DNA of 62,551 nt, counting the filler, from Collodictyon triciliatum (lineage: Eukaryota), in the NCBI GenBank assembly GCA_043381765.1. It is 8 parts of 8 records of this genome, joined end to end, with 100 filler letters (N's around TTAATTAATTAA, not from the genome) between each part and the next. Parts side by side here need not be neighbours in the genome. Positions count along the whole stretch, not along the records: positions 25,145 to 33,424 come from JBHJMP010003494.1; 7 more parts are not named here. The stretch is one strand, 5' to 3'. Positions within the stretch are counted from its first letter, which is position 1, and each line of letters begins with the position of its first letter. Both the position numbers and the translations under genes were made by a program. Positions 106 through 33,424 of the stretch are shown here, in pieces. A model generated the notes under the pieces. That model did not search any database, had not been told where the DNA came from, and worked only from the letters and a program-made list of their open reading frames with translations.

Positions 106-119
106 GTATAGCAATTTAC

Positions 120-7997: not shown

Positions 7998-8120
7998 GTA
8001 TGAAATATGAACATCAAAATAATTTCTTTTGGATTAATATGCTCCAACCCCCTCTTACTTTTACATCTTCAACCCTGTCATCAGATGCTTTATCTTGTTA
8101 TATTCTTCCCTATACGAAAA

Positions 8121-8390: not shown

Positions 8391-8443
<53 letters not shown>

Positions 8444-8497
8444 TAAAAAATAAAATTAAAACATTACAGAATCACACTTATAAATACATATTTGTCT

Positions 8498-12062: not shown

Positions 12063-12733
12063 TTAGGCATCTTCAGCAGCCTCGGCAGCTTTGCGACGGG
12101 CTTCCATGACGTGCTTGAAGAGTTTCTGTAATGGCATTTAAAGATGCATAGTGAACTTGGGAGTCTGTGTTTGGGATATACAGCCTGGGTTTTCTTCGCA
12201 AAGAGAAACAGTATCGGTGGGTTAAAGACAATAGTATCTGAAATCATTATCATTGAATTTCTATTCAGTTATTTAATGTTCTTTGAGTTATCTGCATTTT
12301 TGTTACAATTGGTAGTATAGAGTGAGTTGTAATACCCAAAAAAAAAATACGAATGAAAAACTCGTTTAATTAGACACGAGGCATTTATCGCTATAGGTTT
12401 GGTTATAGTGACGCAAGATAAGTAAATGGAGCGGTGAAATGAACAAAGCATGCTGTTGGAAAGATATGAATAAGGTGTTTTTCAGAGGGACTCTGCCCAG
12501 GAAGTGTATGTCTGTCGAGAAAAATAAGTATAAAAATAAAAAAGTAAAGGAAAATAGAGAAAAGATGACTGAAAAAAAAGGGAGTTACTTACGCCTTTGT
12601 TGTGATTCTCCCAGAACGAATCGATGGAGTTGTCAACGACAACCTCAAGGAAGACGGCAGAGGCGACAACACCAAGTGTCATGACCGAGGTGCGTCTGAA
12701 GAAGAGTTGGTAGGCAGTTTGGGCAAGAGTCAT
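12063..12733 (-). CDS. QCR9: Cytochrome b-c1 complex subunit 9, 67 aa, exons 12733-12593 and 12125-12063
   Basis: MTLAQTAYQLFFRRTSV...DSFWENHNKG|KLFKHV; the W..HNKGKL.K motif is completed across a phase-0 GT-AG intron. Confidence 0.88.
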
Positions 12734-13584
12734 CTGTGGTGGGCTCCTTTCATGATTGAGAACCACACCAAGGAAGTCAAGGATTAACCTTTCGATTAGT
12801 GAAAAAAAAAAAACAAAGAAAAAGTCTATAGGAAAACATTGGAACTTCCAATATAATAAAAGCACGGCGCTGATTTGGTCTCTGTTCTCGTTAAGATTGT
12901 CTGTGGCCTTGGATCAGCCGCAAGGCTTTGTGGAGACGGCGAAGCCGAGCAGACAGATGGCACAGCTGATTTGTTTTGATCAAAGGGGTTCGGATGACGG
13001 AATCACAGGTTTCACAGAAAATTGCCAGTTATTCATATGTGGAATTTATAATTTTAATTGATCTGTACTTCTAAATTATCAATTTTAGCTTATATAAAAT
13101 GTAGTGGTAAAAACAATATTATGTAATATTATCGTTTATCGGGACTTTGAACAAGCTACAGTGTAGAATTATAACAAATGACATATCCTCGAATCAAACA
13201 GCAGTTCCATGCGATTACCGCGCGCATCGCTTTCTGTTCGTTGGCAAATGGAGATTCTGGAAAGTTCCACTTTTCACCGAAAATTCGCCGAAATCCGTGT
13301 TTTATTAGCCCGACCACCCAAGCCGCACATTCGCCATACAATAATTGCGGTGCGTTTGTGAGGTTTGATGATTTGAACGCACTCTCGAGAATCAACCACA
13401 AGCAAGGAGACCACACTTTCGCAACTGTTCGGGCTCTCGCACAAGGCCGCCGCGGTCATTCTGCAGACATTGCCACAAGTCCCACTAGCAGAAGGAGAAG
13501 GCCAGCTTGTATGAACCATAGCAGACCTCCTCATTCACTAACAACCAATAGGGCCAAAGCAAGACAAAGATCGCAAACTCGACA

Positions 13585-16041
13585 ATGAACTTCTGGGGTT
13601 TGTTGACTATACACACGCTGAGAATCGCCTATACCATATATTTTCACTAAAACCAGTGAGAGCATCAACTACTCTCGCGGATAACACGACCTTTATTCCT
13701 TTCCACCAAATTGCAGGAATCGAAGTTGCTCCTTCAAAGCCACAAAAAATTGAGACCAGTGATGTCATCCACCTGACCAGAGTACGTAGAAGCTCTTCAA
13801 TTTTTTAATTTCTTTGGCTCTAACTACTGACCTATTCACAATAAGCTCCACCTGACATGTACCCTCATTTCTCCGGTTTTTTTCTCTTGGCTCTTTACGA
13901 GTGGTGGTTATGTAAACATTTCCTTTTCTTTTCCTTTTTTCTTTTCTTTGTCAGGCTGTCCTTGGCGCCGAGGTCAAACCTGGCCGCACCATCCTGTCGG
14001 TTACCGTTGGCGGAGAGAAGCACATCTTGGCATCACTGTATAAAGAGACTTGCGAGCAAACCTCTCTTGAACATATTTTCCCTCCTGGTGAAGAATTTGT
14101 AAGTTCTAAGAGATAACAGTCGTTGCGACATTGCTCTTTCCCACGCCTGGAATACACAGTCATTTTGTAAACCCACTCCCTTGGCCAGGCTGAGCCCCTT
14201 ACTAAAACACATGCATCGAAAACAGACTTTTGAAGTGACTGGAAGCAACAGCATCTTCCTTACTGGATACACGATGGTTTCCGGTGCGTTCAATGCTTAC
14301 GCGTGGATTCAATATAATTTGAAGAAAATATACTAACTCTATTATATTATCTCCCTCTACTTTGAACGTCAAAACTCGACTGCTACAATAGAAGAGTAAG
14401 GGATGTGATATTACGTGTGTGATATTTTTAATTGTATCCTAGTTAAAATTCAGACAAACTCACGTACAAAATTCTTTTTTCTTAAAAAAAAGGGAGGAAG
14501 ACGAAGACTTGGATGACTTCAGTGGGGAGGAATTCGATGAAGAATTCGATGATGAGGAAGAAGAGGACGAAGAAGAAGAAGAGGAGGAAGCCCCAAAGAC
14601 AACAAAGTCCGGGAAGCCTCGCTTCACTGGTAAACCTGGTGCATCATAAAAACATATTACTGAAATAGCACTGGGCAGTGACACTAAACTTCCACTTACA
14701 TATCACCACTGTAGAAATTACCGAAGAACAAGAGAAAGTATGTTTCTGACTATTGTCCACTAGACATTTTTTCCCCTTTATTCGATTCAAAGTGCAGCTA
14801 ATGTCCACTACATATAAAATAGAAAGCTTTTTACCAGTCCCATTTTTTTCTCATTTTCTCCCTCATTAGTCGACAGCATCCTCTGGAAAGCGTCCTGCTC
14901 CTCAGAACGACGAGGTTGAATCCTCTATTTAATTTTTTCATTCACCGAACCAGCTTTATGCGGAGAATATTATAGAGTATTTTACATTCATAATTCCCTT
15001 TGTAAACGCTACAGTCAAATATGGGACAAAGCCCAAGCACATTATATGTTACTGATATCTTTCCTGTATATGTAGGCTGCCAAGAAGGTCAAGGGTGAAT
15101 CTGGAGCAGCACAACCCGCTGCAGAGGCCCCTAAAAAGCCTGAAGCTGCCCAAAAGGTATGGAACACCCTGAGCACAAATGTTATTTACCCCACCACATG
15201 CGCATCTTGCTTGGTACTTGTGATTAAATTAGTCTGGGTTCCTTTTTGGCGATGAAAAATTCCAACCAGGCACTCACTGCCAATCTCAACCAGGCGCCTA
15301 ACGCCAAGCAGAACCCCAACCAATCTCCCAACGCGAAGCCGAATCCTAATCAGAAGCCGAATCCCAACCAAACCCCAAATGCGAAACAAAACCCAAACCC
15401 AAACCCCAACGCCAAGCAGAATCAGAACAAAGATGGCAATAAGCAGGCTCAAAACACACCAGCCAAGGTTGGTCTTCTCAACAAATTCTTTTCTACTCAC
15501 CTTTCTCGCCCTTTCCTTTTTTTTTACCATCTCCAAAGGAAACAATCACTCGGCCATCTGCCCAATAGGCTATATCAATATATGCAACTACCAACTCCAT
15601 TCCGAGTGTCTAATTGATCAATTCTAGAAAAAAAAAGTTCCTCTAATGTTTTTTTTTTAGAAAGATGCACCGGCTGTAGAGCCACCCAAGAAGGAGGAGC
15701 CTAAGAAGGAAGAACCCAAGAAGGAAGAACCCAAGAAGGAAGAACCCAAGAAGGAAGAACCCAAGAAGGAAGAACCCAAGAAGGAGGAACCCAAGAAGGA
15801 GGAACCCAAGAAGGAGGAACCCAAGAAGGAGGAACCCAAGAAGGAGGAACCCAAGAAGGAGGAGCCCAAGAAAGAGCAGCCCAAGAAGGAAGAACCCAAG
15901 AAAGAGCAGCCCAAGAAGGAAGAACCCAAGAAGGAAGAACCCAAGAAGGAAGAGCCCAAGAAGGAAGAGCCCAAGCCCCAGGGACAACCGGGACAACCTG
16001 GACAGGGAAAGAAGAACAAGAACAAGAACAAAAACAAGTAA
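13585..16041 (+). CDS. Nucleoplasmin-like (NPL; HD-tuin/FKBP-NPL type) histone chaperone with acidic tract and repetitive basic tail
   Basis: Spliced N-terminus MNFWGIEV...IHLTRAVLG...LASL...CEQ..LEHIF...TFEVTGSNSIFLTGY, then an E/D tract at 14494-14590, N/P repeats, PKKEE repeats and stop at 16041. Confidence 0.8.
15685..15969 (+). repeat. Coding 15-nt tandem repeat, 19 x PKKE(E/Q)
   Basis: CCCAAGAAGGARGAR units with synonymous variation. Confidence 0.95.
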
Positions 16042-16458
16042 ATAGCCCTCACAGGCAGGATGCCCGCGCGCATTCGACGCAACCCAGGCGAGCGACCAAG
16101 CACTGACTCTTTTTTTTCTCTGCCCAGGGGCGAAGCCTCAGCCTAAGCGGGGATGACACCGACAAGCGCAGCGGGGCTGTGGCTGCACTCCCTGCGTCGC
16201 ACGCCAATGCCCCCCCACGCGGTCTGCACCTTCTCCTGTACTGAATGCAAAGGCAGCCTGTCGGCAAAGACCACCCCATAAAATCAAAACAAAGACCCAA
16301 CGCAGCCGCCGCGCCTCCCGGCGGTGGTCCGTCCGGCCCGTGTCCTGGCGGGACAGCGCAGAGGGGCAGCGGCCGCGGAGACGCCGGACTAATCAGCCGC
16401 CCAACGCAGGGACCGGCCACGCCCTCCTGCCAGCACACAGGGCCCCGCGCGGCACAGC

Positions 16459-16540
16459 ATGAACACGCCGAGGACGATGGTGTGCGATCTGCGGCCCGGC
16501 GTCAAGAATCTGTCTCTGCAGTTCATCGTCGTCGAGCGCG
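16459..16540 (+). CDS. First exon of SOSS complex subunit B (NABP/hSSB1-like OB-fold); truncated by contig end
   Basis: VCDLRPGVKNLSLQFIVVERG resembles the NABP N-terminus [21 protein letters not shown]; followed by a GT donor. Confidence 0.78.
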
Positions 16541-16678
16541 GTGTGTCTCTTTCCCTCCCCGCACGCTCTCGCTTCTCCTCCCCCAACGAACAACAAAAAA
16601 CAAAAAAACAAAAAACAAAAACAAAAACAAAAACAAAAACAAAAACAAAAACAAAAACAAAAACAAAAACAAAAACAA

Positions 16679-16778: not shown

Positions 16779-16921
16779 TTTATTATTATTTTATTATTAT
16801 TTTATTATTATTTTATTATTATTTTATTATTATTTTATTATTATTTTATTATTATTTTATTATTATTTTATTATTATTTTATTATTATTTTATTATTATT
16901 TTATTATTATTTTATTATTAT
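16779..16921. repeat. (TTTTATTATTA)n tandem repeat
   Basis: Direct 11-nt repeat at contig start. Confidence 0.9.
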
Positions 16922-18289
16922 GAAAAAAAGAGAAAGTAATGCTTTGTTCTCATTAAAAGTTGGCAAGCATGATTTGAACCTCCCCATTTCAGTGCAATAT
17001 CAGTTCTATACGATCTGTCTGTGGTGAATCTCATAGAGTGAATTACAAGAACAGTCTGATATATATCCGCCAAGCTGGGTCAATTCGAAAGCTCTCAAAT
17101 GGCGTTAATCTCATTAATCAATACTCTCAAAATCACGTCTAAAGGGGCTTATGTAATTCATGAAAATGACTCGAGTGCCCTCTGTCCCCAACCATTTAAT
17201 TCTAATATCTGTTTCATAAGCCCTTTCCACTTACTCAGTTTACATAACATATTAAAAAAAAAAAAACAATCTCTTGCTTATTACTCTATTAATGCACTGT
17301 GAAAATGAAGCAAAAAGGCACTGTGATGATACCCATGAGAATTACAGAAAAATGCTTGACTCGCCTGAATCAGCTATTTTCTTAATTATCTGTTGAAATT
17401 ATCGAGGCTTTGGCAGAAACCCGGTCACGTATTTTGTCATTTTATTATTTTATTTTGCATAAATACTCCAAATATTCGTGCATCATCAGAATAAAATAAT
17501 GAGAAAAAGTGTTGAAAAAATCGATGAGCAAATAGAATTGCACAGGTAAAAAGAAAGAAGAAAAAAAAAGGGAGAAAAAGGAAACTGAAAGGGGTGTTGT
17601 TTTAAGTGGCAGGCTCAACTTCTACTTTGTTAGGGTATTATGCACAGAGCCATGAACTAAATTCTGACGTTCTCCACAACCTGACTCGCTCTATTCATCT
17701 GACTTTTTGTCAGGCTTTTCCTCATAATCAAGCGTGGCGGCTGCCGACAGAATCGCAGGTATGGTTGTCTGCTTAACCAAGGGATTCTCTGTGGGGGTCT
17801 TTCTCACCCTCCCTAAATGGCCCAAATGAATTGATAAAGTGCACCACTCAGTTTGGCAATTAAATACAAGTAAAACTCGAAAAACAACTGTGTACTTTGA
17901 ATGTCGGTATGACTTTCCTTATATATTTATATATCAACTTTTACGTGTTGCTCGTCGGGCCAACAGCGAGTTTGGTGTGACGTTTTGGTCTGTGAGAACC
18001 TTCATTGGAGACACTTTAATTCTCGGACTGGGTGGGGGACTTTGCTCGCTTTCGTGCGCATTTCCTGAACCTGTCATCCGACAAACATATTTCAAATGAA
18101 TGGATTATAGAGCCTCCGGTGTAGTCACAAGAGATTCGTGCACAGTTATATCTCCATTCCACTAACAAGGCATGACAGGCAAAGTCGACACCATGTAAAT
18201 GACGTATCTAAAAAGTCATCAAAGCGTACGATTTTGCGACGCCGGTGTTTTCTTATCAACTTGTGGTGGGGCTGGGGCTGATTTTTCTA

Positions 18290-21200
18290 AGTGTGATGAT
18301 TAACTTTATGTGTGTTCAAAAGACGTAAAGATGACCACTGCTCTTTATTCCACACGAGTGTATTGTAAGTAATATTTACTGGGTGTGGTATCGATATTTT
18401 GACCTTCGAAGGCTCCTGTGGCAGTGCTACGAAAAGAGCCTTTCCTTCCTGTTGGCATAGCAAATCGTATATAATCTTTATTTCCGAGACATACATGAAA
18501 TGGTATGTCTACAACAATGAGCCGGAAAAAAATCAAGAAAGTGCATCTTCAATGGTATGATAATGTTACATAAAGTACGCTGTGTGAAATCAGCATTGGA
18601 ATATGTCATAGAGAAAGAAACTATATAAATAAATAGGTCAGTTAATAAATAGATTGATAATCACCTTCAACAATACAATACCCCTTCGTCGCCAACGCCT
18701 CAGAATATGCGGCTGGAACTTTTCATACAAAAAAGTTAAGATAAAAGGTCGGTCGAAATTCAGACACACACATGGCTGTTTGTTAAAAAGGAATATCTTT
18801 TCTTGAGTTGTTTTGAAGAGAAAGAACAAACTTTCGGTAGAGGCTTTTTTCTTTTCAAGGGCTTGTTCTGCTTTTATTCTCTCCTATACAAGAGTTTTCA
18901 AATCAGTGAGCTTTTTTTTTTAAAAAAAAAAAAGAGAATGATAAACCACATGTATATTGTATAAATAGCCTCTCGATTGTGGAGATATCCTTATTACAAA
19001 AAGAAAAAAATTGAGAAGGCTTGCAAACCTCTTCTTCGATTCTATCCAAATCTTCAGGACTTGGGCGTGTCAACTCTGCTGACCATCTTCTATGGTTACG
19101 CGAGATACGATATTTTTCACTCCTGTGATTTGTTGATCAGTATCAAAATATGGTCAGAATCATAAAGCAAGTATATGATGTGAAACACACTTGAATTTTC
19201 CTGTGCCATCGTCATCCGAATTCACAATCACGTATCTCTCGATTTCTTGATACTCCAAAGTTGCCACAAATATTTCAATTATAAGCGCCATCAAGATGCT
19301 GGAAAATAACAAGAAAATATACGCGTATTAGCCAAGGTCGTTAATTGAAGATACCTGTTTTTACATTGAAATTGTAAAAAAAAAAAAAAAAAAAAATGTT
19401 CCCTACTTCATGAATAACATCACTGCAATGGCGATGAATGACAAAAAGAACCTAAGAGTTTGGAATATGAGCCATTCGTTGAGAGTGTACAAAAGTGTAT
19501 CATTGGAATTTTGAAAAAAAATCTGAAAAGTTTACCACGACGAGTGTATAGAAGAGGCATCGATTGCGTCGTACATGATATCTGTGGGTAAAAAAGAAAA
19601 GTAAGAATGGGATTTTAGTAAAAGTATAGGGTATGCATAAAATAAAATAATATGTAATTTACGTACCGCTCCAGTTTGACATCAAAAGCAACCGAAGCAA
19701 ACTATAACAAAAAAAAAAAAACTTAACCATCATCCATATCACGAGATAACAAAAAAAAAAAAAGAATAAGATTTTTTAAGTGATTTATGCGACTTCATAA
19801 TCTTGTTTTCGAAATGATTGTTTTTAATAAGATATTTTAACACTATTGGCCGATGGTCCTTTATATTTATCATCGGTCAATCGATACTAATAAATAGTGT
19901 GCTATTCCTCATAAATACAAACGTAAGGAGAGAAACACCGAATCCATCGAAGGTTGGATGTGGCTCAGAGCTATCTGTAGGTATGGGTAACTTATGATAA
20001 AAGAGCTCCATCCCAAGTATAGCATAAGAATACATGATGACCTACCCACGGAATAAATTTTACGTGGTATTTAGTTGTGGATGTTAACGATACTGCATGA
20101 ATCAGAGACAAAGAGAAGATACCGTTATCGGAATATATATTGCGTGGTAAGTGATCAGGAAGGCCAAACATACCAGTACAAGACACATCACAGCAATTAA
20201 AACTGGAAACATTTTAAGGATATTTTCGATGAAATCTCTCATACTATGAGTAAATATAAAGTATTTATGAAAAAACATTTTGTATAATAGTTCATGACTT
20301 TTATGGAAAAGGTCGAATTCAATTACAAAAAAAAAAAAAACCCTCAAGAAAAAAGGGGTAAGAACCTGTAGACGACAGACACTAATCTCAGTGTTTTCAA
20401 AGCGTAGAGCGCATTCAGATAACGAATTGTATCTATTTACATATACGATTTTTGATATTGTGATGTCGCATTATATTTACAGAAAGATGAAAATTCAACC
20501 ATTTGAGACTAAAATAACTATCTGAATTAGAGAACTAATATATTCAAATTTTAGCAACCTCCATCGTAAAAGCCTGTCATGATAATTGCCAACAGCGGTA
20601 TAACTACTACGGTTGCTTCAAAACTAATGAATATGATGATATTGTGTGCATTAGAATTAAACCGGGCTGCGTTGTTCTATCAGAAATATTCGCATATGGA
20701 CATGGTAAGGACTTTTGCTGAACTCAAAATGTACATTTTCCAGTGGTCTTTGCATATACCAAAGAGACCCTCTGTTAAAAGTCGAAGAGTGAGCTCGAAC
20801 AATAACACTGCCAGAACCAAGTGGTCGAATTGATGCGCCCCGATATTCATGGCCTTGGGCTCGTACAATATGATGGAGACACAAATAATATCGGCAAATA
20901 TCAACAAAAACATGAGAAAGGAATATCCCCTACAAAAACGAAGATTTAAAAGGTTTGCCATTGCACAAACTTTTCGCTGTCGTTAACAGGATGCATTTAA
21001 ATGATTGAAAACAGCCTTTAATTTATGATTATTACTCGTACGTATTGATATTTTCACATATTTTGAATATATACTCACTTGGAATACATGATTTCTTCCA
21101 CTTGTTGTTTTGGAATATATTTTTCAATCAAATCGCATAACCGTTGAGGAAGTATCCTAATATCAAATAAATCATGGCATGTTAGATATGTGAAAGAAAA

Positions 21201-24200
21201 AAGAAAAATCAGTTTTGCCTGTTTTTAAAATCTTTAAATGATCCTATCAGACACATAACTAGATACCTCTTTGGCTCGTCCTCCTTGTGAAACTTTAGTT
21301 GCAAGACATCACACAAAGCAAAAAATTCCCTCATATGTATGCTTTATCAAGGATAGTCTGAAAAAGATAGACGATGCTTTGTTTTTGACAAACTAAATCA
21401 TATAAACATATTAAACAGAACACGTATTATCATACTCATTTCTATTGTTTATAAGGAAAATTAATTGCAAAGTCGGATATCAATCTGCCCGTTTCCATCT
21501 TCGTCGATAGTATCAAAGAGAAGTTGGGCCTGGCCTGAGCGATACTTTTGATCAAGCACACCCAAAAGATCCTTCCAGGTTTGATTGTCAACGTACCTGA
21601 GATTCTGTTCGTGGCAAAGACACGGTATTATGATATATCGGTAAAATTAATGAGTTATAATAGTGCATGGTTTTGCTAAAGAAAAAAGTGTATTTGGACG
21701 AGTATAGACAATCATTTGCATACATTCACATCCAACAAATAAAATGCTGCAGCGAGGGACTGCCTCTCTGCAATTCTATCCTGTATGATTTTTTTCTATA
21801 TTTTCGAGACTCAAGTTAGTTTTTTTTCTCCTTTATTCGTTTCAAAGGAGGTTCGGGTAAGTTATTTCCAAGCCATCAATACACCACCCTCAAACATGTT
21901 AAATTCTGGAATATAATATAAGTGCTGTAATAATATCAGCAAAGCATTAAACCATCTATGAATGCGTTTATCGAGTTTTTTATATCGAAAAATAGAGCAA
22001 CCTTTCTCAGCTGCTTGTAGTTGTCGAACAAGAGTGCAACAGTTATCGTAAGCAGTAGATACAAACAGATGCATATGTAGGAGAGAAAATATATCATGTA
22101 AAATGGGGACATTCGGTAAGCAGGAAACCTAGTCCATTAACAGAACATTATTTTTTGGATGTAAATGGATATTTCTAACGAAGTATCTTTCATTAAAAAG
22201 CGATTCACTATAAGAAACAAGTTTATATAAATCGTACATAACATCCGGAAAATTGTCAGTTGTTAGTAAGACGAAGAGAGCAATCATAGCAGAGGGTAAA
22301 TTCTCAAAGTTGTCTTGCGGGATTTCTCCAGAAGCATCAACATACCTGAAAATGAATGGTTTCAAAAAAAAAGGAAGAGGAAGAAAAGGTGATAAAGTTT
22401 ATGTCAAATGCTGTAGCAATACCCACATACTATCTGATTATTTGCAGTAGAAATTGATAATTAGAGAAGTAAAACAAAATGAATCATAAAAAAAAAATCC
22501 AATTTTTATGTTGCATAAGAAAACAATCAGTAACGAGGAGAGGGGAACATGACAACTTTATGGAATAAGTCATTTGCTTTTCATTAACAATACAGAATGT
22601 CCAAGTGACCAAAAAAATCATTATATGGGGTTTACCTTCCGGAGAAAAGGTATACGCCAATAAACCCGTATAAGCATGTGAAGAAGGTGGTCAGACAGAT
22701 CAAGTGGAACAGACGAGGTATTGTCTTTGCGCATGTAGCAGAAAAGCTTCGGAAACGGCGACTTCTATCAACCAAAATCAGGGGACGTATGATTCTGGAG
22801 ACTCGAGGGATTGACGTAGGATTTCCAATCGATTGAGCAATTATATCAATTGTGCATACCTTGTATAACGAAAAGATAAGCAGATAAGGAGAATAAAGAA
22901 TCGTTATTAGATACTAAGCAAATTTAAAACCTCCCTGACTATTGTTTTTAAAAATAAAATCAACCAGTCATTTATAATAGTGTTGCATTTTATGGGCAAG
23001 GACCTAATTCGTACGTATGTATTCAATAAAATGGACTTGTTTACTAACCAAGACGCATATGCTGGTTTGAATATTCCATCCTTTCCTTAAGAAATATGCC
23101 TTGCCCATGCTCACATAACGGATTATTATATCAACCCAATAGAAGACCACGCAAATAATCTCGATATAGAAGGCCACCTTCATATGAAAACGGTTTATAC
23201 TGTTATGCAGCAATTATCTGATGTATGAATATGTTTTTTTTTCTGGATGTTGGGCTTTCTATGAAAATGGAAATTTTTGATTTAATAAATGAGGTAGTAA
23301 TCTACCACATATTGGATGTACATGAACATCTAGAGGATATGTTATTTCTCACAATACCTGCGCTTCGTGATTTATCCCAGCATTTTCCTTTGTCGCGCGG
23401 AAGCATGGCATTTCAAAGCAAACCAAAATGACGTGAAGAAGAGATATTATCATCATAAATGTTCGATAGATGCGATTGTTTGGTAGTTGGTATATCCTGT
23501 GTTTTGTAATACATTATATGTGAATACTTTAGAACTTTGAATAAAAAAAATAAAGCTCAAAAGAATATTCCTAATGCCTTTTGGTCTCATTAAATTTTTC
23601 AGACAATAGCTCGATTCATATCGGCACTCACCAATGGGAGCCGTTGTTTCTTGGTATGTGCTCCACTCCAAGGACAATATCATGAATGAGACGAGAAGCC
23701 ATTTTTATCCTCTCCTACAGAAACGATTAGCAAATTACAGCCACATCCATCCGAATTCTTTGTAAACATGGACTAGCAAAACTTTGTGGGTGGTACAGAA
23801 AACACATGTAGAATTGAATGAACGTTTGAAGTGATTACGGTGCGAGGAATTCGTGTCAACATATCCCGAGCATTTTCCTCTTCTTCATCGATAATATCAC
23901 CCTCATTTTTTTGCTCGTTGATTGCATCAAGCTCCATCTCAAACATGCTTCCACGGACTTTTGGGGTCGCAATAGTCGGGCTTCGCTTCGGAGATGGTAG
24001 ACTTGCAGATTCCTAAACGTGATATGAATATGTCATGAACACATTAGTCCAATCGGCGGTGCATCCCGACTTTTTTTTTCTCTCACGGGATTGGATATGT
24101 GGTTATGCTCGCATCAAGGAATATTACATACGGGTGCAATAATCCTAGGCGTGCGGGCTGACTTTGGTGGAAGGGTTAATTCAGAGGCAGACAATGAGCT

Positions 24201-24344
24201 CTTTATGCCGGCATTGATGGAAACATCTTCTGGTGGTGAAAGTTGGATTCCCTCTTCATGCAGTATGTCTCCGCGAGAGCATAGGTAGTTCATCGCATCG
24301 ACGTAGGACACTGCTTCGTGTAATCCACGCTGGTTCTTGGCCAT
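18290..24344 (-). CDS. TPCN: Two-pore channel (TPC), many exons; both ends approximate
   Basis: S4-like RVSRIIRPLILVDRSRRFR; pore I FENLPSAMIALFVLLTTDNFPDVMY; EF-hand-like linker LFDTIDEDGNGQID; pore II LLRLLLMSNW; S6 SILMALIIEIF. Confidence 0.85.
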
Positions 24345-24947
24345 TGGGAAATCCTCAATCCCATCAATGCGAGCTTTATTACGTATATTTGTTCATCGTA
24401 CTTTGTTAATATTATGAGAGGAAAAAGGAATAGGTTGGCCCATGATGTTTGATGGGAAAGTGGTTCATTAGTTCTCAGTTGTGGTTCTGAACTGTATTTT
24501 TTTAATCAAGTAGATGATTGGATACCGCAGAATGGTTCTCATTCCCTAGGACATGCGTGTATTACATTTTTATAAATAGGTGTGACAGCAGGTGGGGTGT
24601 GATTACATTTGCGATGGATGGCAAATCTACGAGAGGCTTTTTCTTCCATGATTAAGTCTGCTTCATAAGTAGATATCCGTCCGTTCCAATCGCCAGTCGA
24701 ACGCTTATGTCGTTCAGTGTACTCAGAATCTACTTTAGTTTTGGTTTTATTTTGTTGTTTTACAAAAAAAAAATCATTAGATATAAAGTTTAATTTTTTT
24801 GGGCACCCGACTCTGAAAGGATTTATATATATAAAAAAAAAACAGATATTTTCGAGGCAACAAAAACGATTCGTAAAGATTAATGAGATCATGAGCAGTA
24901 ATATCACCATGAATAAATATGTTAGGGTAAGCATGTGCGGTTAATTT

Positions 24948-25044
24948 AATGATAATGATAATGATAATGATAATGATAATGATAATGATAATGATAATGA
25001 TAATGATAATGATAATGATAATGATAATGATAATGATAATGATA
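24948..25044. repeat. (AATGAT)n microsatellite
   Basis: Hexamer tandem at contig end. Confidence 0.95.
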
Positions 25045-25144: not shown

Positions 25145-25202
25145 ACTCCTCGTGCTCCTCGTTGTGCGTAATTAACAATCATACATTTCCCAAGATAAAA
25201 AT

Positions 25203-28200
25203 ATGAGCTTGTTTATGGGATCTAAAGAATTCAATCAGAAACTATATGAAGAAAATATAAAAAACATCAGAGCGTATGAATTAGAAGCTGAGCAAATACC
25301 CAAAGTAATGAAAGAGTTGTATAACACAATATTTCCTAAAGGAAAATCAAAATCTATCGAAGCAGCACTTATGATTCGAATTGCTAGTTTGCAATACCCC
25401 CACAAAAATCCTAGTAAGTCGTATAAACTTGCAGCAGATGCTTTTATGGCATCGACATCATCTAGTGAATTTTTTAGATTGTATGCAAATGGTCCTGCTG
25501 CAGGTGTTCCAATTACCACAGATAACTTTATAAGAGCATTGGCAAATTTATTAACAACACAAGGAAAAATTTATATAGATGATACTGTAGAAAAATACAA
25601 TCCTCAATCACGTTTAAAGTTACAGCGTGATGATGATACTGAAGACGTTGATCTTATTTCTCGTGAAAGTATAGTTAGTACTTTGACAGAAATAGCAGGG
25701 GAACAAGATGATGAAGAAGAAGAAGAAGGTCAAACCAATGTATTTGGAGAAGCAGACACAGACCAATTTGATGCAGACCGAGCAGCAATAGAAAAAGGTT
25801 ATCAATCCGCCGAGTCGGGCTCACCAGAAGGCTCACCAGACAAATTAAATGTATCAAATGTATCAGCAGTCAGTGTTGAGGAACCAAAAGCGGCAGAAGA
25901 AGAAGAAGAAGAAGACGATGAAAATACAGTTACATTAGACCCTGACCAAATCAATGTTCGTTATGGTCTGCTTCGAAATACTATTTCAACCAGCACCAAA
26001 GAAATTTTTGTTTTGGGTTACTTACAAAAACGCAAAAACCTTGTACCAGTTCCTACACATATTCACTTACTTTGTAATCGAGTTTTACAATTGCTGCGTG
26101 CACGGGGTGTTTTACAATACACAGACTTTCCAAAGTTTGTACCTTCAGGAGATTATGATAGTACAGAATGGGACAACGCCAATGAAATATTAAGTGAGTA
26201 CCTCACTTTAGAAGTGACACAAACACTTTACACTATGTTGATTAATCAAGAAACAAAAGAAGACTTGAAACAGGCCAGATTAGTTCTCCTTGAACGACTA
26301 GCCGAAGAAGAGTTAGTTGCCGAAGCACTGTTAGAACGCAGACAAAATAAAGAACGAGCTATTAGAGCCCAAGAAAGAGAAGCAAGAAGGGCTAAACAAC
26401 TTGAAAGAGAAGAATTCATTAAAGCAGCTCGAGCAGCAGGTAAAAAAGCAGCAACAGCAGCCGTAGCAGCAGCAGGACCAACTGTTAAACAACAAATTCA
26501 AGAGATGCGATTACAAAAAGACCAATTAGAAGATGCATTAGCATTAGGGCCACAATTACCTAGCAGACTAGACCCGTCTTTCAAAGCCAGAATGATGTTG
26601 ATTTACTTGGAACAAGTACGAGCATATAAAAAAGAAGTAGCACTAAAGGCTATTGAAGAAGTGCCTACATTTGTACCCAATACCCAAAACGAAACTGAAT
26701 TAGCTACAAACGAGTTATTAATAAGTGTAATCAAAGCACAACGCATCAGACGCGAAGTTTTACAGAGAACATATTTAGCAGAAGTCGAAGCAGCTACTTT
26801 ATTTGGCGTAGATGACAGTGCAGATATTGCCCAACAATTAGCAGAAATAGACAATTTAATTGAACAAGACTTACCTACGGACGATGATTTCTTAACAGAC
26901 GTTGCCACGTTGTTTTTAGCCGCACAAGAAGAAGCCGAACAACTTCCAGCAGATTTTAGACAATCCCTCAACGATTCTATGAGAATGTTAAATGAAAAAG
27001 TACAGTTGAGACAAGACGAAACCGTTGACTCACTAGAAAAAACGACAGAGGCAGACACAATTTTACCTTTGACACCGGCAGCTACACCACGACGCAATAC
27101 ATCACAATCATTTACAATTGCTTCTGGGTTTGGAACTAGAGTAATAGGTGACTCAGGGGAAATTGCTAGAAGGCAATTAACTTTTGATGAAGATTCACAA
27201 ACGGCCGAAACTATTAGACGACTACAAGAAGAAAATAATGAACTAAGACAAGAATTAGTAAGAATGCGAGCAGTAGCTAGTGAAGCTCAACAATTGTATG
27301 ACAATTTATTTACGGATATGATTAGAATACAAGATGTAAACGAAAAGGCCCGCGCAATGGATGCCGAGTATATTGGTAAATTACGAAACAAAATGTTAGA
27401 ATTGACACCTCGCCGGCCTAAAGCACTTGTAAAACGTGCTGTTCAGGCAGATGTTGATACACAAACCTGGACTCCTTTACACGAAATCAGACATAAAGAA
27501 TATCCTGTGACACCTGCAAAAAGTGGGGGTGTCAGAGTAGCAATATCACCACGCAAAACACCCCAAGGCCGAATCGAACCAGGTGGATCTGAACAAACAG
27601 CTTTAACATCAAAAGCGTTTTCACCTAAACCCCCATTAGCTCCCGAATCTGGACGTGTGTTTCCAGTAGAAAGAAGTCCAGCAGCCCAAGAATTCATAGA
27701 CAATTCAAAAGCCTTGACAATTAGAATGTCTCAAGCTACTAGAAATCTAATAATAGCCAAGAATATGATCCCTGATAGATTAGAAGACAGCGGAGTCCAA
27801 CAAGATTTTTTAGCGGCCCAGCAGTTGTATATTGAACAACTTCAAAATGAAATAAGAGATTTGAGAAGACAATATAACAATCAACATTTGGCCATTCGCG
27901 ACGTAGACAGACCTGAAGCGCAGGGTAATATCGAGACAGTCAAAAATGAATTCTTGGCCCTTCAAGGTAATGATGCTGCTAGAGTTCAAGCTTTACAAAG
28001 TTCGGTAACAAGCACACAATTAGCACTAGTTGCAAGACGAGACGAGCTAACCGATGAAGGCAATCGCGATCTTAATCAATTGCAAGATGCATTAATTAAG
28101 GCAGCCAACGACTTAGTTAAACTTGAGAAGCTGAGACTACAGCAATTGGAATTTTATATGTCCCTTGATCAAGAGCGACAAGAGCAAATCGACGCACTTA

Positions 28201-29762
28201 AAGGAAAAGCCCCAAGTAGGTTAGCCCAGGAAGCAGCTAAAAGAGCAAATGAAGAGCAGGCTAGGAATCAAAAGCTGCGAGAAGAAATGAAAGCATTAGA
28301 AGACCGACTTGAATTATTGACACAACAACAAAAGCAAACACAAGATCAACCTACAAGCAAAGACCCCGCTGAACTCAAACGACAGCAAGATTTATTACAA
28401 CAACAAAATGAGCAGTTAGAAGACCTAAGGAGACAACTCCAAGAAAAAACAGCTGAACTAGAAACAGCAAAGGCCGAACCCAAGGCCACACCCAAAAGGC
28501 TGAAACAAGCAATCAACCGCGCTAACGCGGAGCAAGCCAGAAACCAAGAGCTTCGACAACAGATTGAAGAAGTAGGTAGAGCAAGACAAGAAGCAGAAAA
28601 CAAACTTGAAGCTGAAAGACAAAGGCAAGCCAATAAACCTACTCCAGGTAAGACTCCAGAGAAAGTACAAGAAAATAATCAAAGACGTGCAGATGAAATA
28701 AAAAAGCTAGAAGGTAGACTTCGTAAACAAGAGACAGATTATCAGAAAACGATAGCTCAATTAGAACAAAGTAATCTTGCACTTGTGCGTGAATCAGACG
28801 CGGCAATTGCAAGATTAACAGTAGACAGGGAAACAGATGCTCAGACCATACGCAATTTAATCGCACAAACACAGGCACAGGGCGGCACAATTCAATTCCA
28901 AGCCCGAGAAGCACAAGAACGAGAACAAGAACAGCAGAGACTTGTCCAGGAAAATATTGATCTACGAGCAAATTTAGCTAGATTAAAAGCAGAAAGGAAA
29001 AGCGGAACTACAACTCCTAGACAAACGCAAAATAATCCTCTTGGTAGTAATATGGGATCACGTTCACAACAATCATTTACTGCTTCTCAACGCGGCGCAG
29101 GTATCAATCCAACACCCTCGTTTATTGGAGCTACACCAAGCATGACACCAATATTCGCACCAAACAGACCGCAAGTTAGAGATTCCCGAGACACATCCAA
29201 CGCTAGCAGATTTGCTCAGAAAGTGTCACGGTTCTTTGAAACAGCTGCCCCAGGTACCAATAACACCACATTCGCTTTTAATTCTTATGATACATTCTTA
29301 AATGCTATGGCGACATATGGCATTGAAGCAGTTGATTTAACAAGCGACACCAGTTATCTCGAAGATATTGTAACCGCATTTTATTCTGGGGGTGTTTCGA
29401 GACAGGACATGAATACGCTAATTGCCAGTGCAAGAGCAGCTGGAGCGTGGCCTCTTAAATACCAACCAAAGTATAGTGATCAGTCAAATGTAAACACTCG
29501 CTCGGTTGCGTTTATGAACCGGTCACTTGGGCAAGTAGTCAACTCAGATATGGGCACTATATTTGTAGGCGCACAGCCAAGCAGTGTCATCCGCAGACAG
29601 GGCCTGAATTACGTCGTAAGCGGACCACGAGGTGAAAAGGCAGTCTTTGGTACAGCCCGAGACGCTCAATATTACTCTTCGGCAAAAGGCAAGAGATACG
29701 GCCCAGTCACAGAAAGCGTCTTTGGTTATAAACCGAAAAACCTTTCACAGGCAATCTATTAA
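25203..29762 (+). CDS. 1519-aa viral protein with long coiled-coil regions, function unknown
   Basis: Single uninterrupted ORF; E/Q/L/R/A-rich heptad stretches, acidic patches and an internal duplication. Confidence 0.9.
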   Translation: MSLFMGSKEFNQKLYEENIKNIRAYELEAEQIPKVMKELYNTIFPKGKSKSIEAALMIRIASLQYPHKNPSKSYKLAADAFMASTSSSEFFRLYANGPAAGVPITTDNFIRALANLLTTQGKIYIDDTVEKYNPQSRLKLQRDDDTEDVDLISRESIVSTLTEIAGEQDDEEEEEGQTNVFGEADTDQFDADRAAIEKGYQSAESGSPEGSPDKLNVSNVSAVSVEEPKAAEEEEEEDDENTVTLDPDQINVRYGLLRNTISTSTKEIFVLGYLQKRKNLVPVPTHIHLLCNRVLQLLRARGVLQYTDFPKFVPSGDYDSTEWDNANEILSEYLTLEVTQTLYTMLINQETKEDLKQARLVLLERLAEEELVAEALLERRQNKERAIRAQEREARRAKQLEREEFIKAARAAGKKAATAAVAAAGPTVKQQIQEMRLQKDQLEDALALGPQLPSRLDPSFKARMMLIYLEQVRAYKKEVALKAIEEVPTFVPNTQNETELATNELLISVIKAQRIRREVLQRTYLAEVEAATLFGVDDSADIAQQLAEIDNLIEQDLPTDDDFLTDVATLFLAAQEEAEQLPADFRQSLNDSMRMLNEKVQLRQDETVDSLEKTTEADTILPLTPAATPRRNTSQSFTIASGFGTRVIGDSGEIARRQLTFDEDSQTAETIRRLQEENNELRQELVRMRAVASEAQQLYDNLFTDMIRIQDVNEKARAMDAEYIGKLRNKMLELTPRRPKALVKRAVQADVDTQTWTPLHEIRHKEYPVTPAKSGGVRVAISPRKTPQGRIEPGGSEQTALTSKAFSPKPPLAPESGRVFPVERSPAAQEFIDNSKALTIRMSQATRNLIIAKNMIPDRLEDSGVQQDFLAAQQLYIEQLQNEIRDLRRQYNNQHLAIRDVDRPEAQGNIETVKNEFLALQGNDAARVQALQSSVTSTQLALVARRDELTDEGNRDLNQLQDALIKAANDLVKLEKLRLQQLEFYMSLDQERQEQIDALKGKAPSRLAQEAAKRANEEQARNQKLREEMKALEDRLELLTQQQKQTQDQPTSKDPAELKRQQDLLQQQNEQLEDLRRQLQEKTAELETAKAEPKATPKRLKQAINRANAEQARNQELRQQIEEVGRARQEAENKLEAERQRQANKPTPGKTPEKVQENNQRRADEIKKLEGRLRKQETDYQKTIAQLEQSNLALVRESDAAIARLTVDRETDAQTIRNLIAQTQAQGGTIQFQAREAQEREQEQQRLVQENIDLRANLARLKAERKSGTTTPRQTQNNPLGSNMGSRSQQSFTASQRGAGINPTPSFIGATPSMTPIFAPNRPQVRDSRDTSNASRFAQKVSRFFETAAPGTNNTTFAFNSYDTFLNAMATYGIEAVDLTSDTSYLEDIVTAFYSGGVSRQDMNTLIASARAAGAWPLKYQPKYSDQSNVNTRSVAFMNRSLGQVVNSDMGTIFVGAQPSSVIRRQGLNYVVSGPRGEKAVFGTARDAQYYSSAKGKRYGPVTESVFGYKPKNLSQAIY

Positions 29763-29792
29763 ACAATTGTTACTATTAATAAGAATTGTTTA
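29760..29792. terminator. AT-rich hairpin between convergent viral genes (candidate 3'-end/polyadenylation signal)
   Basis: TAAACAATT (29760-29768) pairs with AATTGTTTA (29784-29792), extended by TTA/TAA inside. Confidence 0.5.
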
Positions 29793-29797
29793 TGGAC

Positions 29798-32008
29798 TTA
29801 AGTGTCGGCATTTGGTAATACATCTAAAGGCGTACCACCTGTAGGGACGACCCATCTAGTGGCATTTACAAACCAGCGATCAACTGTTTCACCTGGAACA
29901 CCATTTCCAACTCTCATACAACATGCTCTAAACCAAGTGCCTTCTGCTACCTCATAAATTGTATTTTGAAGTGCCATCATATTAAGATTAGATGCGCCTA
30001 TTATAAACGCGCTGTTGTTTGGCTCAGCGCCTGCCTGGTTAAATCTAATTCGTTTGTATCCCGTTCCGTTTTTTCCTGGAAGGTTCCACACAATTACCTC
30101 AACTTCCAGGCCGTTCGGCACTGCTGTAGCGCTGGGAAAATGTATATTAGTCGTTGCCGATCCTGACACCGCCTTTGTTAGAATAATTCTGCCTGGAGTG
30201 TCTCGAGTGACATTATATGTTCCATTGTCAACAACAATAAAATCTCCACTCATTGCCTTGGAAAGTTTCAAGGTGTTGAAAATAGAAAAGTCGTCTTGTG
30301 TCGTTGACATTACAGTATTTGAATTTAACTGCATAGTCATTGTACTTGACTGTCCTGCGCTGGTTCCAGTGATATAAGACCCTGTTCCACCAAAATATAT
30401 TCCGTTAACAGTTACCGCATCCTGACTTGCAGTATTACAATCAGGCCAAACATACCAAATTCCTGTGCTTGCTGATGTAGACTTGTAGATACATTGGTAC
30501 ACTACACCCTCAAAAATTTCGAATTGCGTATTTCCAGTAATTACAGTTCTTACTTTGTTTTCATAATAATGTATTTCAGCTGTAGTTGATCCACTTGTTG
30601 TAATATACAGTCTATTGGAATTCACACTACTTTTGTATGGAATAATTGTATGATATTGTCCATCGCATCTAATTGGCATTACTCCTAAAGTAATTATTTG
30701 ATTACCTTCGGTTATTTGTACACGCAGAAACTGTGGTGTCAACACTGCCACTGTAAAAGCTGCATTTACTTCTACCATTGGCGCGCGCACACATTTTTTT
30801 ATTACTAATGCCTCTTCTATAGACGCAAGCCCTTCATTAGTGCTTGAGTTTCTTGTACAGTCTATAATGTTTATTGTATTACATAAAATTCGAAGATTGT
30901 TATTTGTGTTTTGAAATCGGATGCCTGTTGCTGTATTTGTTGTACTGTATAAACCAGCAGCATCTGCTATACTTGCTACGACACCGACGCCGCCGCTAGT
31001 TCCGGCCATAACTAGATTGCCTGTAAGAGTCGCACCCGTATTATTTATATTCAGTCTTTCTACACCATTTGTACTTATTGACACTGAATTATCTGCGCCA
31101 TATATTCCACTTGCTGTATTACCAGTAACACCGGGCGGATCGTTAAAAGATATACTCGGGACTGTAGCACTTCCACTTGTAAAATTAAGCTGTTGTGTTA
31201 TACCCAGTCTTATTATGTGCCAGTTGGTTAAACTTCCGAAATATATACATTGATAAATTGCCCCCACATCTAATCTTATATTGTCTGTTGTTTGTGTTCG
31301 TACACCATTAAAGTAAGTTTCAAAAGCACCTACTCCTGTTCCCCGTGCTAAAAAGGCGCTAAAATTGCCTCCAAGAGAAAACGGATTAAAGTAAAACATT
31401 GTTCCTGAATTCAAGGCTGGAAGTGTATGAGTAACATCATTACTAGTAATATTCATACGCTGATAAACATTGTCAGTTTGAGTCATGGTTCGATTAACTG
31501 CTTGCGAAATAGGGGTGAATGCCACCCCATTACTTAATGTGACATTACTTGAACAAGTCAATGGAACCGATAAAGTACTACCAGTATTAGTCCAGGTCTG
31601 TGTAATTGTATTTGCACATATAACATTCAGCGTGTTGGTAGATGACTGTCCGTTAATTCCCGTGCCGGTGTTCAAAAGGCGTAAACCTGATGCACTCCCA
31701 GACGCTACCCGAATAATATCTACGGTTGGGTTGTCAGTAAATGCGTATGTACCGGCACCTGTTGAATTCAGAATTTGATTAGCAGCTGATGGAACCGGTA
31801 CCTGGTTCACTGCAGCCCACGACGGCACTGACCCGTTTGTTGTCAGAAAACGTCCAGCATTGCCAGTTTGGCTAGGCAGCTCTGCCGGTGCCACTGTTTC
31901 TTGTAGCCACTGTAAATAAAGCCCACTTGAATCTACTTTTAATACTTTGTTTGCGTCTTGATTGGAAAATTCCGGTAGTTCCTTTTCTTCTGTTATGAAA
32001 AACCCCAT
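29798..32008 (-). CDS. 736-aa virion fibre / receptor-binding protein (first ATG at 32008)
   Basis: Phage-fibre-like motifs LPSQTGNAGRFLTTNGSVPSW and GSATVPSISF...SGIYG.DNSVSISTNGVERLNI; T/N/G/S-rich; directly downstream of the penton gene. Confidence 0.75.
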   Translation of the reverse strand: MGFFITEEKELPEFSNQDANKVLKVDSSGLYLQWLQETVAPAELPSQTGNAGRFLTTNGSVPSWAAVNQVPVPSAANQILNSTGAGTYAFTDNPTVDIIRVASGSASGLRLLNTGTGINGQSSTNTLNVICANTITQTWTNTGSTLSVPLTCSSNVTLSNGVAFTPISQAVNRTMTQTDNVYQRMNITSNDVTHTLPALNSGTMFYFNPFSLGGNFSAFLARGTGVGAFETYFNGVRTQTTDNIRLDVGAIYQCIYFGSLTNWHIIRLGITQQLNFTSGSATVPSISFNDPPGVTGNTASGIYGADNSVSISTNGVERLNINNTGATLTGNLVMAGTSGGVGVVASIADAAGLYSTTNTATGIRFQNTNNNLRILCNTINIIDCTRNSSTNEGLASIEEALVIKKCVRAPMVEVNAAFTVAVLTPQFLRVQITEGNQIITLGVMPIRCDGQYHTIIPYKSSVNSNRLYITTSGSTTAEIHYYENKVRTVITGNTQFEIFEGVVYQCIYKSTSASTGIWYVWPDCNTASQDAVTVNGIYFGGTGSYITGTSAGQSSTMTMQLNSNTVMSTTQDDFSIFNTLKLSKAMSGDFIVVDNGTYNVTRDTPGRIILTKAVSGSATTNIHFPSATAVPNGLEVEVIVWNLPGKNGTGYKRIRFNQAGAEPNNSAFIIGASNLNMMALQNTIYEVAEGTWFRACCMRVGNGVPGETVDRWFVNATRWVVPTGGTPLDVLPNADT

Positions 32009-32024
32009 TACACTTAGCAAGAAT

Positions 32025-32792
32025 TTATTCCTCTGGAATTACACGCAGCGTAAACGAATAGTCTTGTAACAGATTAATTGTTTGTCCCAGTCTATCTACC
32101 AATCGGAAATTCCAGCTGAAGGGGATATACGAGCAGTCCATCAGATTCTCGAGAATGTTGTCGTTGACCTCGTAATAACTCGCATATCTCGCCCCAAGAG
32201 TCAGCGGTATTTTTGCGATGATGCCATTGCCGCCTATATTGCTGGCAAAGCTCGAACTCTGAATATTTGGGCTGACTAGATACACATAATCAAACGGACG
32301 GATATTGACTGTATTCTGTAGCTCCACAAAAGAGGTATTGAATGACAGATTGGCTGTCAGCCCAATTAGGTCCCGGCACGTCGACGAATTCACAAACAGT
32401 TGATATGAGATTGATGCTCCGTCTCCTTTGATAGCAATCTTCTGTTTGCCGGTAAGAAATGAAACTGAAACAACCGCATTAGCTGACTGGGAATTGGTTG
32501 CTGCGTTCATCTTTGTTCGGATGTCATTGACGATTTCAGTGATTGTTTGTAATCCAGTTTCAAGTGACACATTGTACGACACAGGGCTGTCTGCTCCGAC
32601 TTGGCAAAGGAAGGATAACTCGTTGTTGGCGGATGTGACATTGTGTACGGCATTCGGTATCTGGATACTCTCTAGCCCAATTTTTGCTTTGCTTGACACA
32701 TATCTGTTCTGTGTCGTTGCGAAATTAAAGTCTGCGATACTTCCGCTTTCTCGGTTTTCGGAATCAACATAAATGTAAAATGCTTTGTCCAT
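32025..32792 (-). CDS. Minor capsid protein (penton, single jelly-roll), PLV/virophage type
   Basis: IYVDSENR..G....F; IGLESIQIPN..HNV...NNEL; IIAKIPL; C-terminal FRLVDRLG..INL..DYSFTLRV; 255 aa. Confidence 0.78.
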   Translation of the reverse strand: MDKAFYIYVDSENRESGSIADFNFATTQNRYVSSKAKIGLESIQIPNAVHNVTSANNELSFLCQVGADSPVSYNVSLETGLQTITEIVNDIRTKMNAATNSQSANAVVSVSFLTGKQKIAIKGDGASISYQLFVNSSTCRDLIGLTANLSFNTSFVELQNTVNIRPFDYVYLVSPNIQSSSFASNIGGNGIIAKIPLTLGARYASYYEVNDNILENLMDCSYIPFSWNFRLVDRLGQTINLLQDYSFTLRVIPEE

Positions 32793-32825
32793 ACTCTTGC
32801 CAGAAATTATTTTCTATGGATTCAT
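32793..32825. promoter_or_regulatory. 33-nt divergent intergenic region, candidate bidirectional viral promoter
   Basis: Between head-to-head ATGs; contains an AGAAA/TTTCT inverted repeat and TCTA about 10 nt before the ATG at 32826. Confidence 0.4.
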
Positions 32826-33152
32826 ATGAGTGATTCTGAAAAGGAAACCATTGAGAAACCAAAAAAGAAACGCGTAGCATCAGAAAAGCAGAGAGCCCAC
32901 CTTGCCAAAATTCAGCCTAAAGCAACAGAAGCAAAAAAGAAGAACAAGGAAATTGTTCAGACGGTCAAGCAATACGAGGCCGTCAAAAAGCCCATTCACG
33001 ACTATTCTTCGTTACAGCACGACGTGTCTTTGATCAAACAGTATCTCACAAAGGAAGAGGCTAGAAAAATCGAGAAGCGAAGAATTAAGGAAACAGTAGA
33101 TAAGGCTCAAGTCAGAGAACTCTCATATGATTCAAATCTTTTATTTAGATAA
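32826..33152 (+). CDS. Small Lys-rich viral protein, 108 aa
   Basis: KPKKKRVASEKQRAHLAK; stop codon 2 nt before the ATPase ATG. Confidence 0.75.
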   Translation: MSDSEKETIEKPKKKRVASEKQRAHLAKIQPKATEAKKKNKEIVQTVKQYEAVKKPIHDYSSLQHDVSLIKQYLTKEEARKIEKRRIKETVDKAQVRELSYDSNLLFR

Positions 33153-33154
33153 GT

Positions 33155-33424
33155 ATGGAAAGCAAAAAGATAAACAACATTAAGGTTGAACCACTCAAGA
33201 CAGTCAAGAAAAACAAGCGTGAAGTAATCCTGGATATTTTACCAGACGCAAAGTCAGATAGGCCTTTTTGGATGTTGATAAGCGCGAAAGTTGCTTCAGG
33301 GAAAACAACCTTGATCAGTAATTTACTGGGAAAGAAGGAAATGTATCACCAGATATTTGACAAAGTATATTTCTGCTCTTCAAACATTTCCGGAGGAGAA
33401 ATCCACGACTCGAGTTACGAGGGT
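33155..33424 (+). CDS. A32-like (FtsK/HerA) genome-packaging ATPase, N-terminal fragment
   Basis: PFWMLIS-AKVASGKT-TLISNLL (Walker A) followed by FDKVYFCS; truncated at contig end. Confidence 0.8.

Follow-up and report, generated by a model that had tools for sequence, protein, structure and literature searches.

The fourth of the eight contigs making up the stretch of Collodictyon triciliatum DNA analyzed here (62,551 nucleotides of assembly GCA_043381765.1, referred to as “the window”, in which the contigs are joined by N spacers with an all-frame stop linker) very probably stems from a polinton-like virus (PLV) of a freshwater lineage, of whose ~16–17-kb genome it covers approximately the structural half. 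This contig (JBHJMP010003494.1; positions 25145–33424, 8280 nt) had been flagged in the initial annotation as that of a PLV or virophage, a reading now supported by the fold of its penton, by the Pox_A32 matches of the relatives of its truncated ATPase and by the hallmark genes encoded on syntenic relatives of the contig. The compactness noticed at the time is likewise borne out, as 96% of the contig is taken up by stop-to-stop ORFs of 150 aa or longer, compared with 0–43% for the other seven window contigs (a contrast that serves as a proxy for the noted lack of introns), and the gaps between its ATG-defined ORFs had rightly been described as tiny (20, 35, 16, 33 and 2 nt), the five ATG ORFs thus being spaced by 2–35 nt. 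So is the absence of microsatellites, with none of the 56 TRF rows of the window falling inside the contig, whereas each of the other seven contigs has at least one such row and several of them end in one. The GC content of the viral contig (0.404) lies within the range of the other window contigs (0.33–0.43), so that composition has no power to single it out. The features recognized are listed in Table 1; Pfam and PHROGs gave no matches above the cut-off for the five ORFs, the fibre-like one included, and the major capsid protein (MCP), integrase and replication genes are absent from the window contig, being known only in its relatives.

Table 1. Features of the viral contig, in coordinates of the window.
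Feature	Position	Strand	Basis or remark
cl10, small conserved protein, first 12 codons	25145..25182	-	Translation versus L005 and L014 homologues; gene-order clusters
W-rich-TCT motif	25191..25201	-	Within the 20 nt separating cl10 from the giant ORF, 10 nt before the cl10 ATG
Giant ORF, 1519 aa	25203..29762	+	ATG ORF; conserved C-terminal domain
Fibre-like protein, 736 aa	29798..32008	-	Conserved N-terminus, mosaic distal part
W-rich-TCT motif	32018..32028	-	11 nt upstream of the fibre ATG
Penton (minor capsid) protein, 255 aa	32025..32792	-	AF2 model, Foldseek versus BFVD, VIA-align versus PDB
Near-palindrome, 14 nt, AGAAATTATTTTCT	32802..32815	.	Between the divergent penton and 108-aa genes
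cl1, lysine-rich conserved protein, 108 aa	32826..33152	+	ORF clustering with relatives
A32-type packaging ATPase, N-terminal 90 aa	33155..33424	+	91% identity to the L001 protein; Walker A
Walker A motif AKVASGKT	33284..33307		In the 90-aa ATPase fragment

Judged by its predicted structure, the 255-aa ORF is the penton (minor capsid) protein. Ten homologues sharing 39–91% identity were found in a collection of 5.8 billion proteins, while a profile search of the PDB sequences returned nothing meaningful and tblastn against a phage collection gave no matches. The AlphaFold2 model built from the homologue alignment is of moderate confidence (pLDDT 67, pTM 0.56) and has 49 Foldseek matches in BFVD at E ≤ 1e-3, which include two proteins of Tetraselmis viridis virus S1 (TVS1), the minor capsid proteins of mavirus and Qinghai Lake virophage, adomavirus LO5, proteins of adintovirus and MELD virus, and an adenovirus penton. 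A second fold search, independent of Foldseek (VIA-align against 48,161 representative PDB chains), was topped by virus capsid and penton entries, i.e., the EhV-201 capsid protein (8rbt_S, Z 11.7, 108 residues aligned), PBCV-1 (8h2i_bG, Z 10.4, 229 residues, and 6ncl_a6, Z 10.0, 127 residues), the mavirus penton (6g41_A, Z 9.3, 240 residues), fowl adenovirus (8roq_M, Z 8.0, 234 residues) and Sputnik (3j26_N, Z 7.8, 240 residues), with unrelated jelly rolls staying below Z 7.5; the comparison with the adenovirus penton base (8coi_A) gave Z 7.3. The single jelly-roll penton proposed from the sequence is therefore upheld by a penton-type fold in both searches, the model depicting a single jelly roll into which an upper domain is inserted at approximately residues 48–164. 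An upper domain inserted in the jelly roll is also seen in the adenovirus penton base, although neither the adenovirus penton base nor the adenovirus fibre shows sequence similarity to the window proteins.

The truncated ORF at the right contig end is, to judge from its homologues, the N-terminus of a viral A32-type genome-packaging ATPase. The 90-aa fragment, which includes the Walker A motif, shares 91% identity with the N-terminal 90 aa of the 240-aa protein encoded on a metagenome contig (L001) and 53–70% with eight further full-length proteins, and all nine of these full-length relatives match the Pfam family Pox_A32 above the cut-off (best E 1.4e-9), which bears out the earlier suggestion of an A32-type ATPase as opposed to a cellular P-loop family. 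The Pox_A32 alignment holds ten members, the tenth being the window fragment itself, which has no Pfam family when taken alone. The only match of the ATPase profile among the PDB sequences, a weak full-length one, was STIV B204 (E 0.18).

What the window contig lacks can be read from its relatives. When metagenome contigs from JGI/ENA were scanned with the penton profile, 96 pattern-matched stretches were obtained, 15 of which encode relatives, and clustering of the ORFs of these 15 loci (designated here by L numbers) revealed a single gene order at all loci of sufficient length: rve integrase, a 174–187-aa protein, a ~770-aa DUF5906/S3H helicase, the A32 ATPase, the 108-aa protein, penton, fibre, giant ORF, a 114–119-aa protein and a ~530-aa MCP. 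The 108-aa protein (cl1) is encoded directly upstream of the ATPase gene in every case, and the 114–119-aa proteins are the homologues of cl10, the gene of which separates the giant ORF from the MCP gene in the relatives and is cut by the left contig end here. Pfam supports the integrase and helicase assignments in L005 (rve 7.5e-12, DUF5906 1.8e-16) and the latter in L014 (DUF5906 4.7e-13). For the 533-aa protein of L014, which has 39 homologues, the AF2 model (pLDDT 72.7) matches double-jelly-roll MCPs; at E ≤ 1e-3, fold searches returned 121 entries from BFVD and 254 from the PDB (SGIV, Sputnik 3j26_A, PBCV-1 Vp54, faustovirus and mavirus 6g44_A among them), while the profile of the protein found nothing meaningful among the PDB sequences. 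In the 19 ORFs of L014 and L005, neither polymerase B nor protease families exceeded the cut-off of a scan that relied on Pfam only and could thus miss remote homologues; the sole peptidase match, Peptidase_C15, was sub-threshold (18.1 bits versus a cut-off of 22.7) and lay inside the integrase ORF. The syntenic relatives carrying all of the hallmarks plus the integrase measure 14.8–16.4 kb, and the longest contigs with a penton or MCP 16.9–17.2 kb. Terminal inverted or direct repeats were not found on the three longest relatives (L014, L005 and L004), so none of them can be taken as a complete genome. The scans of IMG/VR with the penton and MCP profiles gave 13 and 75 pattern stretches, respectively, with no confirmed relatives, and the five MCP relatives of NCBI origin are all deposited as “hypothetical protein”.

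Receptor-binding fibres usually evolve as a conserved anchor with exchangeable distal modules, and the 736-aa ORF appears to behave in just this way, with a fixed N-terminal anchor and swapped distal modules. Its N-terminal 64 aa are 83–91% identical in L002, L004, L009 and L010, and even the distant L014 retains 55% identity over 125 residues. The penton and giant-ORF fragments of L009 are 90% and 92% identical to those of the window contig, yet its fibre shares only the first 64 residues with the window fibre, being instead 91% identical to the L010 fibre over residues 1–325 and aligning along its full length with that of the distant L014 (43% identity); the distal half of the L010 fibre, in turn, resembles that of the window (66% identity). 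The distal module has only eight homologues, all of them unannotated and of similar length, and the Protein Atlas offered a weak phage-like lead (0.92, recognition below the mark). The first 64 aa would thus be the capsid anchor and the distal part would bind the receptor, and the position of the gene, which adjoins that of the penton, is consistent with a fibre role. The adenovirus fibre similarly combines a conserved N-terminal tail with a variable distal part and has its gene next to that of the penton; a contact between fibre and penton might be presumed for the window virus.

The giant ORF begins with a variable region containing acidic runs, followed by a long middle rich in E/K/Q/R/L/A and by a conserved C-terminal domain, only the last 170–220 residues being conserved among the relatives. 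Among 1.84 billion representatives searched exhaustively with HMMER, just 12 proteins contained this domain, eight of which are 1000–1450 aa long and have it at their C-terminus (the other four are 147–630 aa), marking the giant ORF as specific to the present lineage; the Protein Atlas had nothing for the domain. The E/K/Q/R/L/A share amounts to 41–77% per 100 residues over the first 1300 residues of the window protein, and the relatives contain long P/A- or G-rich linkers. The middle is probably helical and the C-terminal domain, of ~200 aa, globular. “Coiled coil”, however, is a description from composition for this protein, as only 9% of it is strictly heptad-like in a crude heptad scan (versus a shuffled mean of 1%), and the coiled-coil Pfam matches of its relatives are all sub-threshold. 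A SAP DNA-binding domain falls just under the cut-off in one homologue and was not found by Pfam in the window giant ORF. Given its place in the structural module, the product is probably an elongated, virion-associated protein, which might act as another long fibre, as an internal protein or one linked to the genome, or as a scaffold within the cell; on the MELD virus maps displayed in PMC8502044, coiled-coil genes are labelled “Fiber” or “Tapemeasure”. Together with the fibre, the giant ORF takes up 35% of the 16.4-kb L014 contig and would take up ~40% of a 17-kb genome of the window virus. The initial annotation had seen a hint of an undescribed lineage in such a share for the 4.5-kb ORF plus a fibre, an argument that turns out to be weak: according to a passage of PMC12220804, multi-domain proteins exceeding 1000 aa are found in most PLVs, and size by itself is thus no sign of novelty.

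A further trait seems to be common to the structural genes. Between the divergent penton and 108-aa genes, AGAAATTATTTTCT places a motif of five A/T followed by TCT (W5-TCT) 9–10 nt ahead of both ATGs, so this single near-palindrome may serve the two genes like a bidirectional promoter element. When the 30-nt regions upstream of genes of the window contig and three relatives were inspected, W5-TCT was present in 19 of the 22 regions belonging to structural genes (108-aa gene, penton, fibre, giant ORF, cl10 and MCP), ending exactly 10 nt before the ATG in 15 of these 19. The 13 regions preceding other genes, the integrase, helicase and ATPase among them, all lack it, and it occurs in 4.8% of 20,000 random windows. 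The statistic is generous and its p-value inflated, since the pattern was picked after viewing the sequences. The giant ORF lacks the motif in three of the four genomes. Still, a spacing fixed across genomes whose pentons share 36–91% identity would be hard to put down to chance. Virophage genes are described in a passage of PMC6723459 as bearing the late promoter of their giant virus, which makes giant-virus-dependent transcription a testable idea for W5-TCT and nothing more; by this analogy, the element is only a lead on dependence upon a co-infecting giant virus.

Taken as a working model, MCP trimers and penton pentamers would assemble an icosahedral capsid into which the A32 ATPase would package the viral DNA; the fibre would join the vertex via its conserved N-terminal 64 aa and bind the host with its exchangeable distal modules, while the giant protein would be an elongated and probably virion-associated component peculiar to the lineage. 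The W5-TCT element ~10 nt before the ATGs might switch the structural genes on together, and the rve integrase encoded by the relatives would allow integration into a protist genome, of which the window contig gives no sign.

How, then, is such a virus to be classified? A double-jelly-roll MCP, an rve integrase, a helicase, no pPolB or protease and small contigs amount to the gene content of a PLV, a group for which preprint 10.64898/2026.06.19.733378 uses the class name Aquintoviricetes (isolates TsV-N1 and Gezel-14T; sequenced virus TVS1), with genomes of 14–40 kb according to the part of PMC12220804 dealing with their size. The window lineage has in common with the PLVs a dsDNA genome that is probably small, the double-jelly-roll MCP, the single-jelly-roll penton and the A32 ATPase, a replication gene of the helicase type instead of pPolB (DUF5906 in the relatives), fibre-like and very long proteins and the aquatic protist setting; a maturation protease, usually absent from PLVs, was not detected in the relatives either, and TVS1 proteins rank among the best penton matches. 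On the other hand, the named PLV proteins have no detectable sequence similarity to those of the lineage, and the C-terminal domain of the giant ORF and the distal module of the fibre occur only in the latter. A strict virophage (Maveriviricetes) has several points in its favour: mavirus and Sputnik share the penton and MCP folds and probably also the genome size (~17–19 kb), mavirus has an rve integrase just as the relatives do, and a fixed promoter-like motif before the structural genes recalls the giant-virus late promoter that virophages use (in the same passage of PMC6723459). The virophage matches of the penton and of the relatives' MCP are, however, found among others, and the best MCP matches are not virophage-specific, with the SGIV, asfar-like and ascovirus MCPs outranking those of Sputnik and mavirus; moreover, the protease and pPolB of mavirus and Sputnik were not found in the relatives, no cysteine protease family exceeding the Pfam cut-off in the 19 ORFs of L014 and L005 and replication being assigned to a DUF5906 helicase. 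The evidence thus favours a PLV over a strict virophage because no maturation protease was found in the relatives, which makes the virophage an improbable reading.

Mavericks/Polintons and adintoviruses also share the morphogenetic module and the rve integrase with the lineage, and the 255-aa ORF has pentons of adintovirus and MELD virus in its list of matches, yet the protein-primed PolB that defines Mavericks/Polintons was not found in L014 or L005. It is barely conceivable that the contig derives from the genome of a giant virus (Nucleocytoviricota), even though the penton, A32 ATPase and double-jelly-roll MCP are hallmarks of NCLDVs too and PBCV-1, EhV and SGIV appear among the top structural matches: the syntenic relatives hold all of the hallmarks and the integrase within the 14.8–16.4 kb mentioned above, and no contig bearing a penton or MCP exceeds 17.2 kb. 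With the PLV being the preferred reading, the lineage fits the ordinary PLV pattern, and, although perhaps already listed in the PLV literature, it is unannotated in the databases searched, its proteins being “hypothetical protein” or unnamed there. A bolder version, rather unlikely at present, would have an unnamed distinct PLV lineage devote 35–40% of a 17-kb genome to two host-interaction proteins and employ a fixed-distance late promoter read by a giant virus. If true, its protein of 1200–1500 aa with a private C-terminal domain could form an unusually long fibre at the vertex or tether the genome to the capsid, and a late promoter read by a co-infecting giant virus would imply a virophage-like lifestyle without the virophage protease. 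The contig does not change the current view of PLV biology. Since the databases searched assign neither a Pfam family nor a name to the capsid proteins of this lineage, annotation pipelines would miss it; the promoter-like element and the mosaic fibre, meanwhile, provide handles on who transcribes the genes and on what sets the host range.

PLVs are abundant viruses of aquatic protists, most of them known from metagenomes only and with no known host, which is why a PLV fragment within a protist assembly is a candidate virus–host link. Whether it is an endogenous copy integrated in the protist genome or a free virus that was co-assembled or co-binned with it is another matter. Integration, to which somewhat less than an even chance might be given, would agree with the rve integrase of the relatives, with the massive integration of PLVs in protist genomes reported in PMC12220804 and PMC10120064 and with the breaks inside viral genes, which fit a multi-copy element unresolved by the assembler. 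Against it stand the lack of any host flank (viral coding sequence is found at both ends), the intactness of all ORFs, the absence of PLV genes from the other seven window contigs and the fact that near relatives are common in metagenomes, on wholly viral contigs. A co-assembled free virus is just as compatible with the data, and, with both ends of the contig cutting viral genes, the contig itself cannot decide between the two.

As for the wider distribution of the virus, no public sequencing run contained half of the sampled words of the contig, the best share in any of them being 0.22, in aquaculture metagenomes, and most other runs with part of the contig are labelled freshwater. Logan contigs from two DNA runs and two metatranscriptome libraries are 88–99% alike to the window contig (the middle of the fibre gene being uncovered in three of these four runs, which is not evidence of its absence), and such matches, which speak for the presence of relatives and not for expression, show at the sequence level that close relatives of the window virus exist elsewhere.

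The ATGs of structural genes (those encoding the 108-aa protein, penton, fibre, giant ORF, cl10 and MCP) in the polinton-like virus contig and its metagenomic relatives L004, L005 and L014 are preceded, about 10 nt upstream, by five A/T followed by TCT (W5-TCT) in 19 of the 22 regions, a pattern that was chosen after inspection of the sequences, and the integrase, helicase, ATPase and other genes of the same four sequences show it in none of their 13 upstream regions. The helicase genes of L004 and L005 have a common upstream string of their own, ACATTAAGAAC, which differs from W5-TCT, and the string common to the ATPase genes is TTTATTTCG.TAAT; such distinct upstream strings by gene set suggest separate promoter classes.

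Both the giant ORF and the 108-aa gene/ATPase region have counterparts of approximately 90% likeness among the contigs of two metatranscriptome libraries, each from a different study. One such contig, of 5033 nt, covers most of the giant ORF, and DNA carry-over may account for these contigs.

Features of the viral contig (window positions) and of its relatives
Feature	Location	Remark
W5-TCT element	window 32802-32815	
W5-TCT element	window 32018-32028	
W5-TCT element	window 25191-25201	
Metatranscriptome-matched regions	window 25754-29752 and 32791-33424	
Mosaic fibre genes	window 29798-32008; L009:512-2533; L010:485-2638; L014:8426-10636	
Giant-ORF homologue	L014:10673-14236	~400 aa of P/A/G-rich repeats as low-complexity linker
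Giant-ORF homologue	L005:9365-13468	glycine run as low-complexity linker
157-nt direct repeat, 99% identical	L005:4394-4550 and L005:5922-6078	flanks ATPase/108-aa gene pair
21-nt inverted arms	L005:5908-5928 and 6071-6091	
65-nt inverted arms	L014:5325-5524	gap between helicase gene and orf148

The fibre genes have a mosaic structure: residues 1-325 are 91% identical between relatives L009 and L010, whereas the distal modules beyond differ, one being window-like and the other L014-like. Long low-complexity linkers set the giant-ORF homologues of L014 and L005 apart from the window protein, which is devoid of them. Residues 190-234 of another homologue, P0058, gave a sub-threshold match to the DNA-binding SAP domain (PF18953; 24.4 bits vs. 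a cut-off of 26.3), and no SAP domain was detected in the window giant-ORF protein. On visual inspection, several of the family's N-termini have a SAP-like appearance.

Microsatellites and homopolymers abound in the other contigs of the window (1-8290, 8391-16678, 16779-25044 and 33525-62551), several of which terminate in such repeats, and the sole Pfam match among ten of their long ORFs tested was a leucine-rich-repeat protein (432-1844, minus strand).
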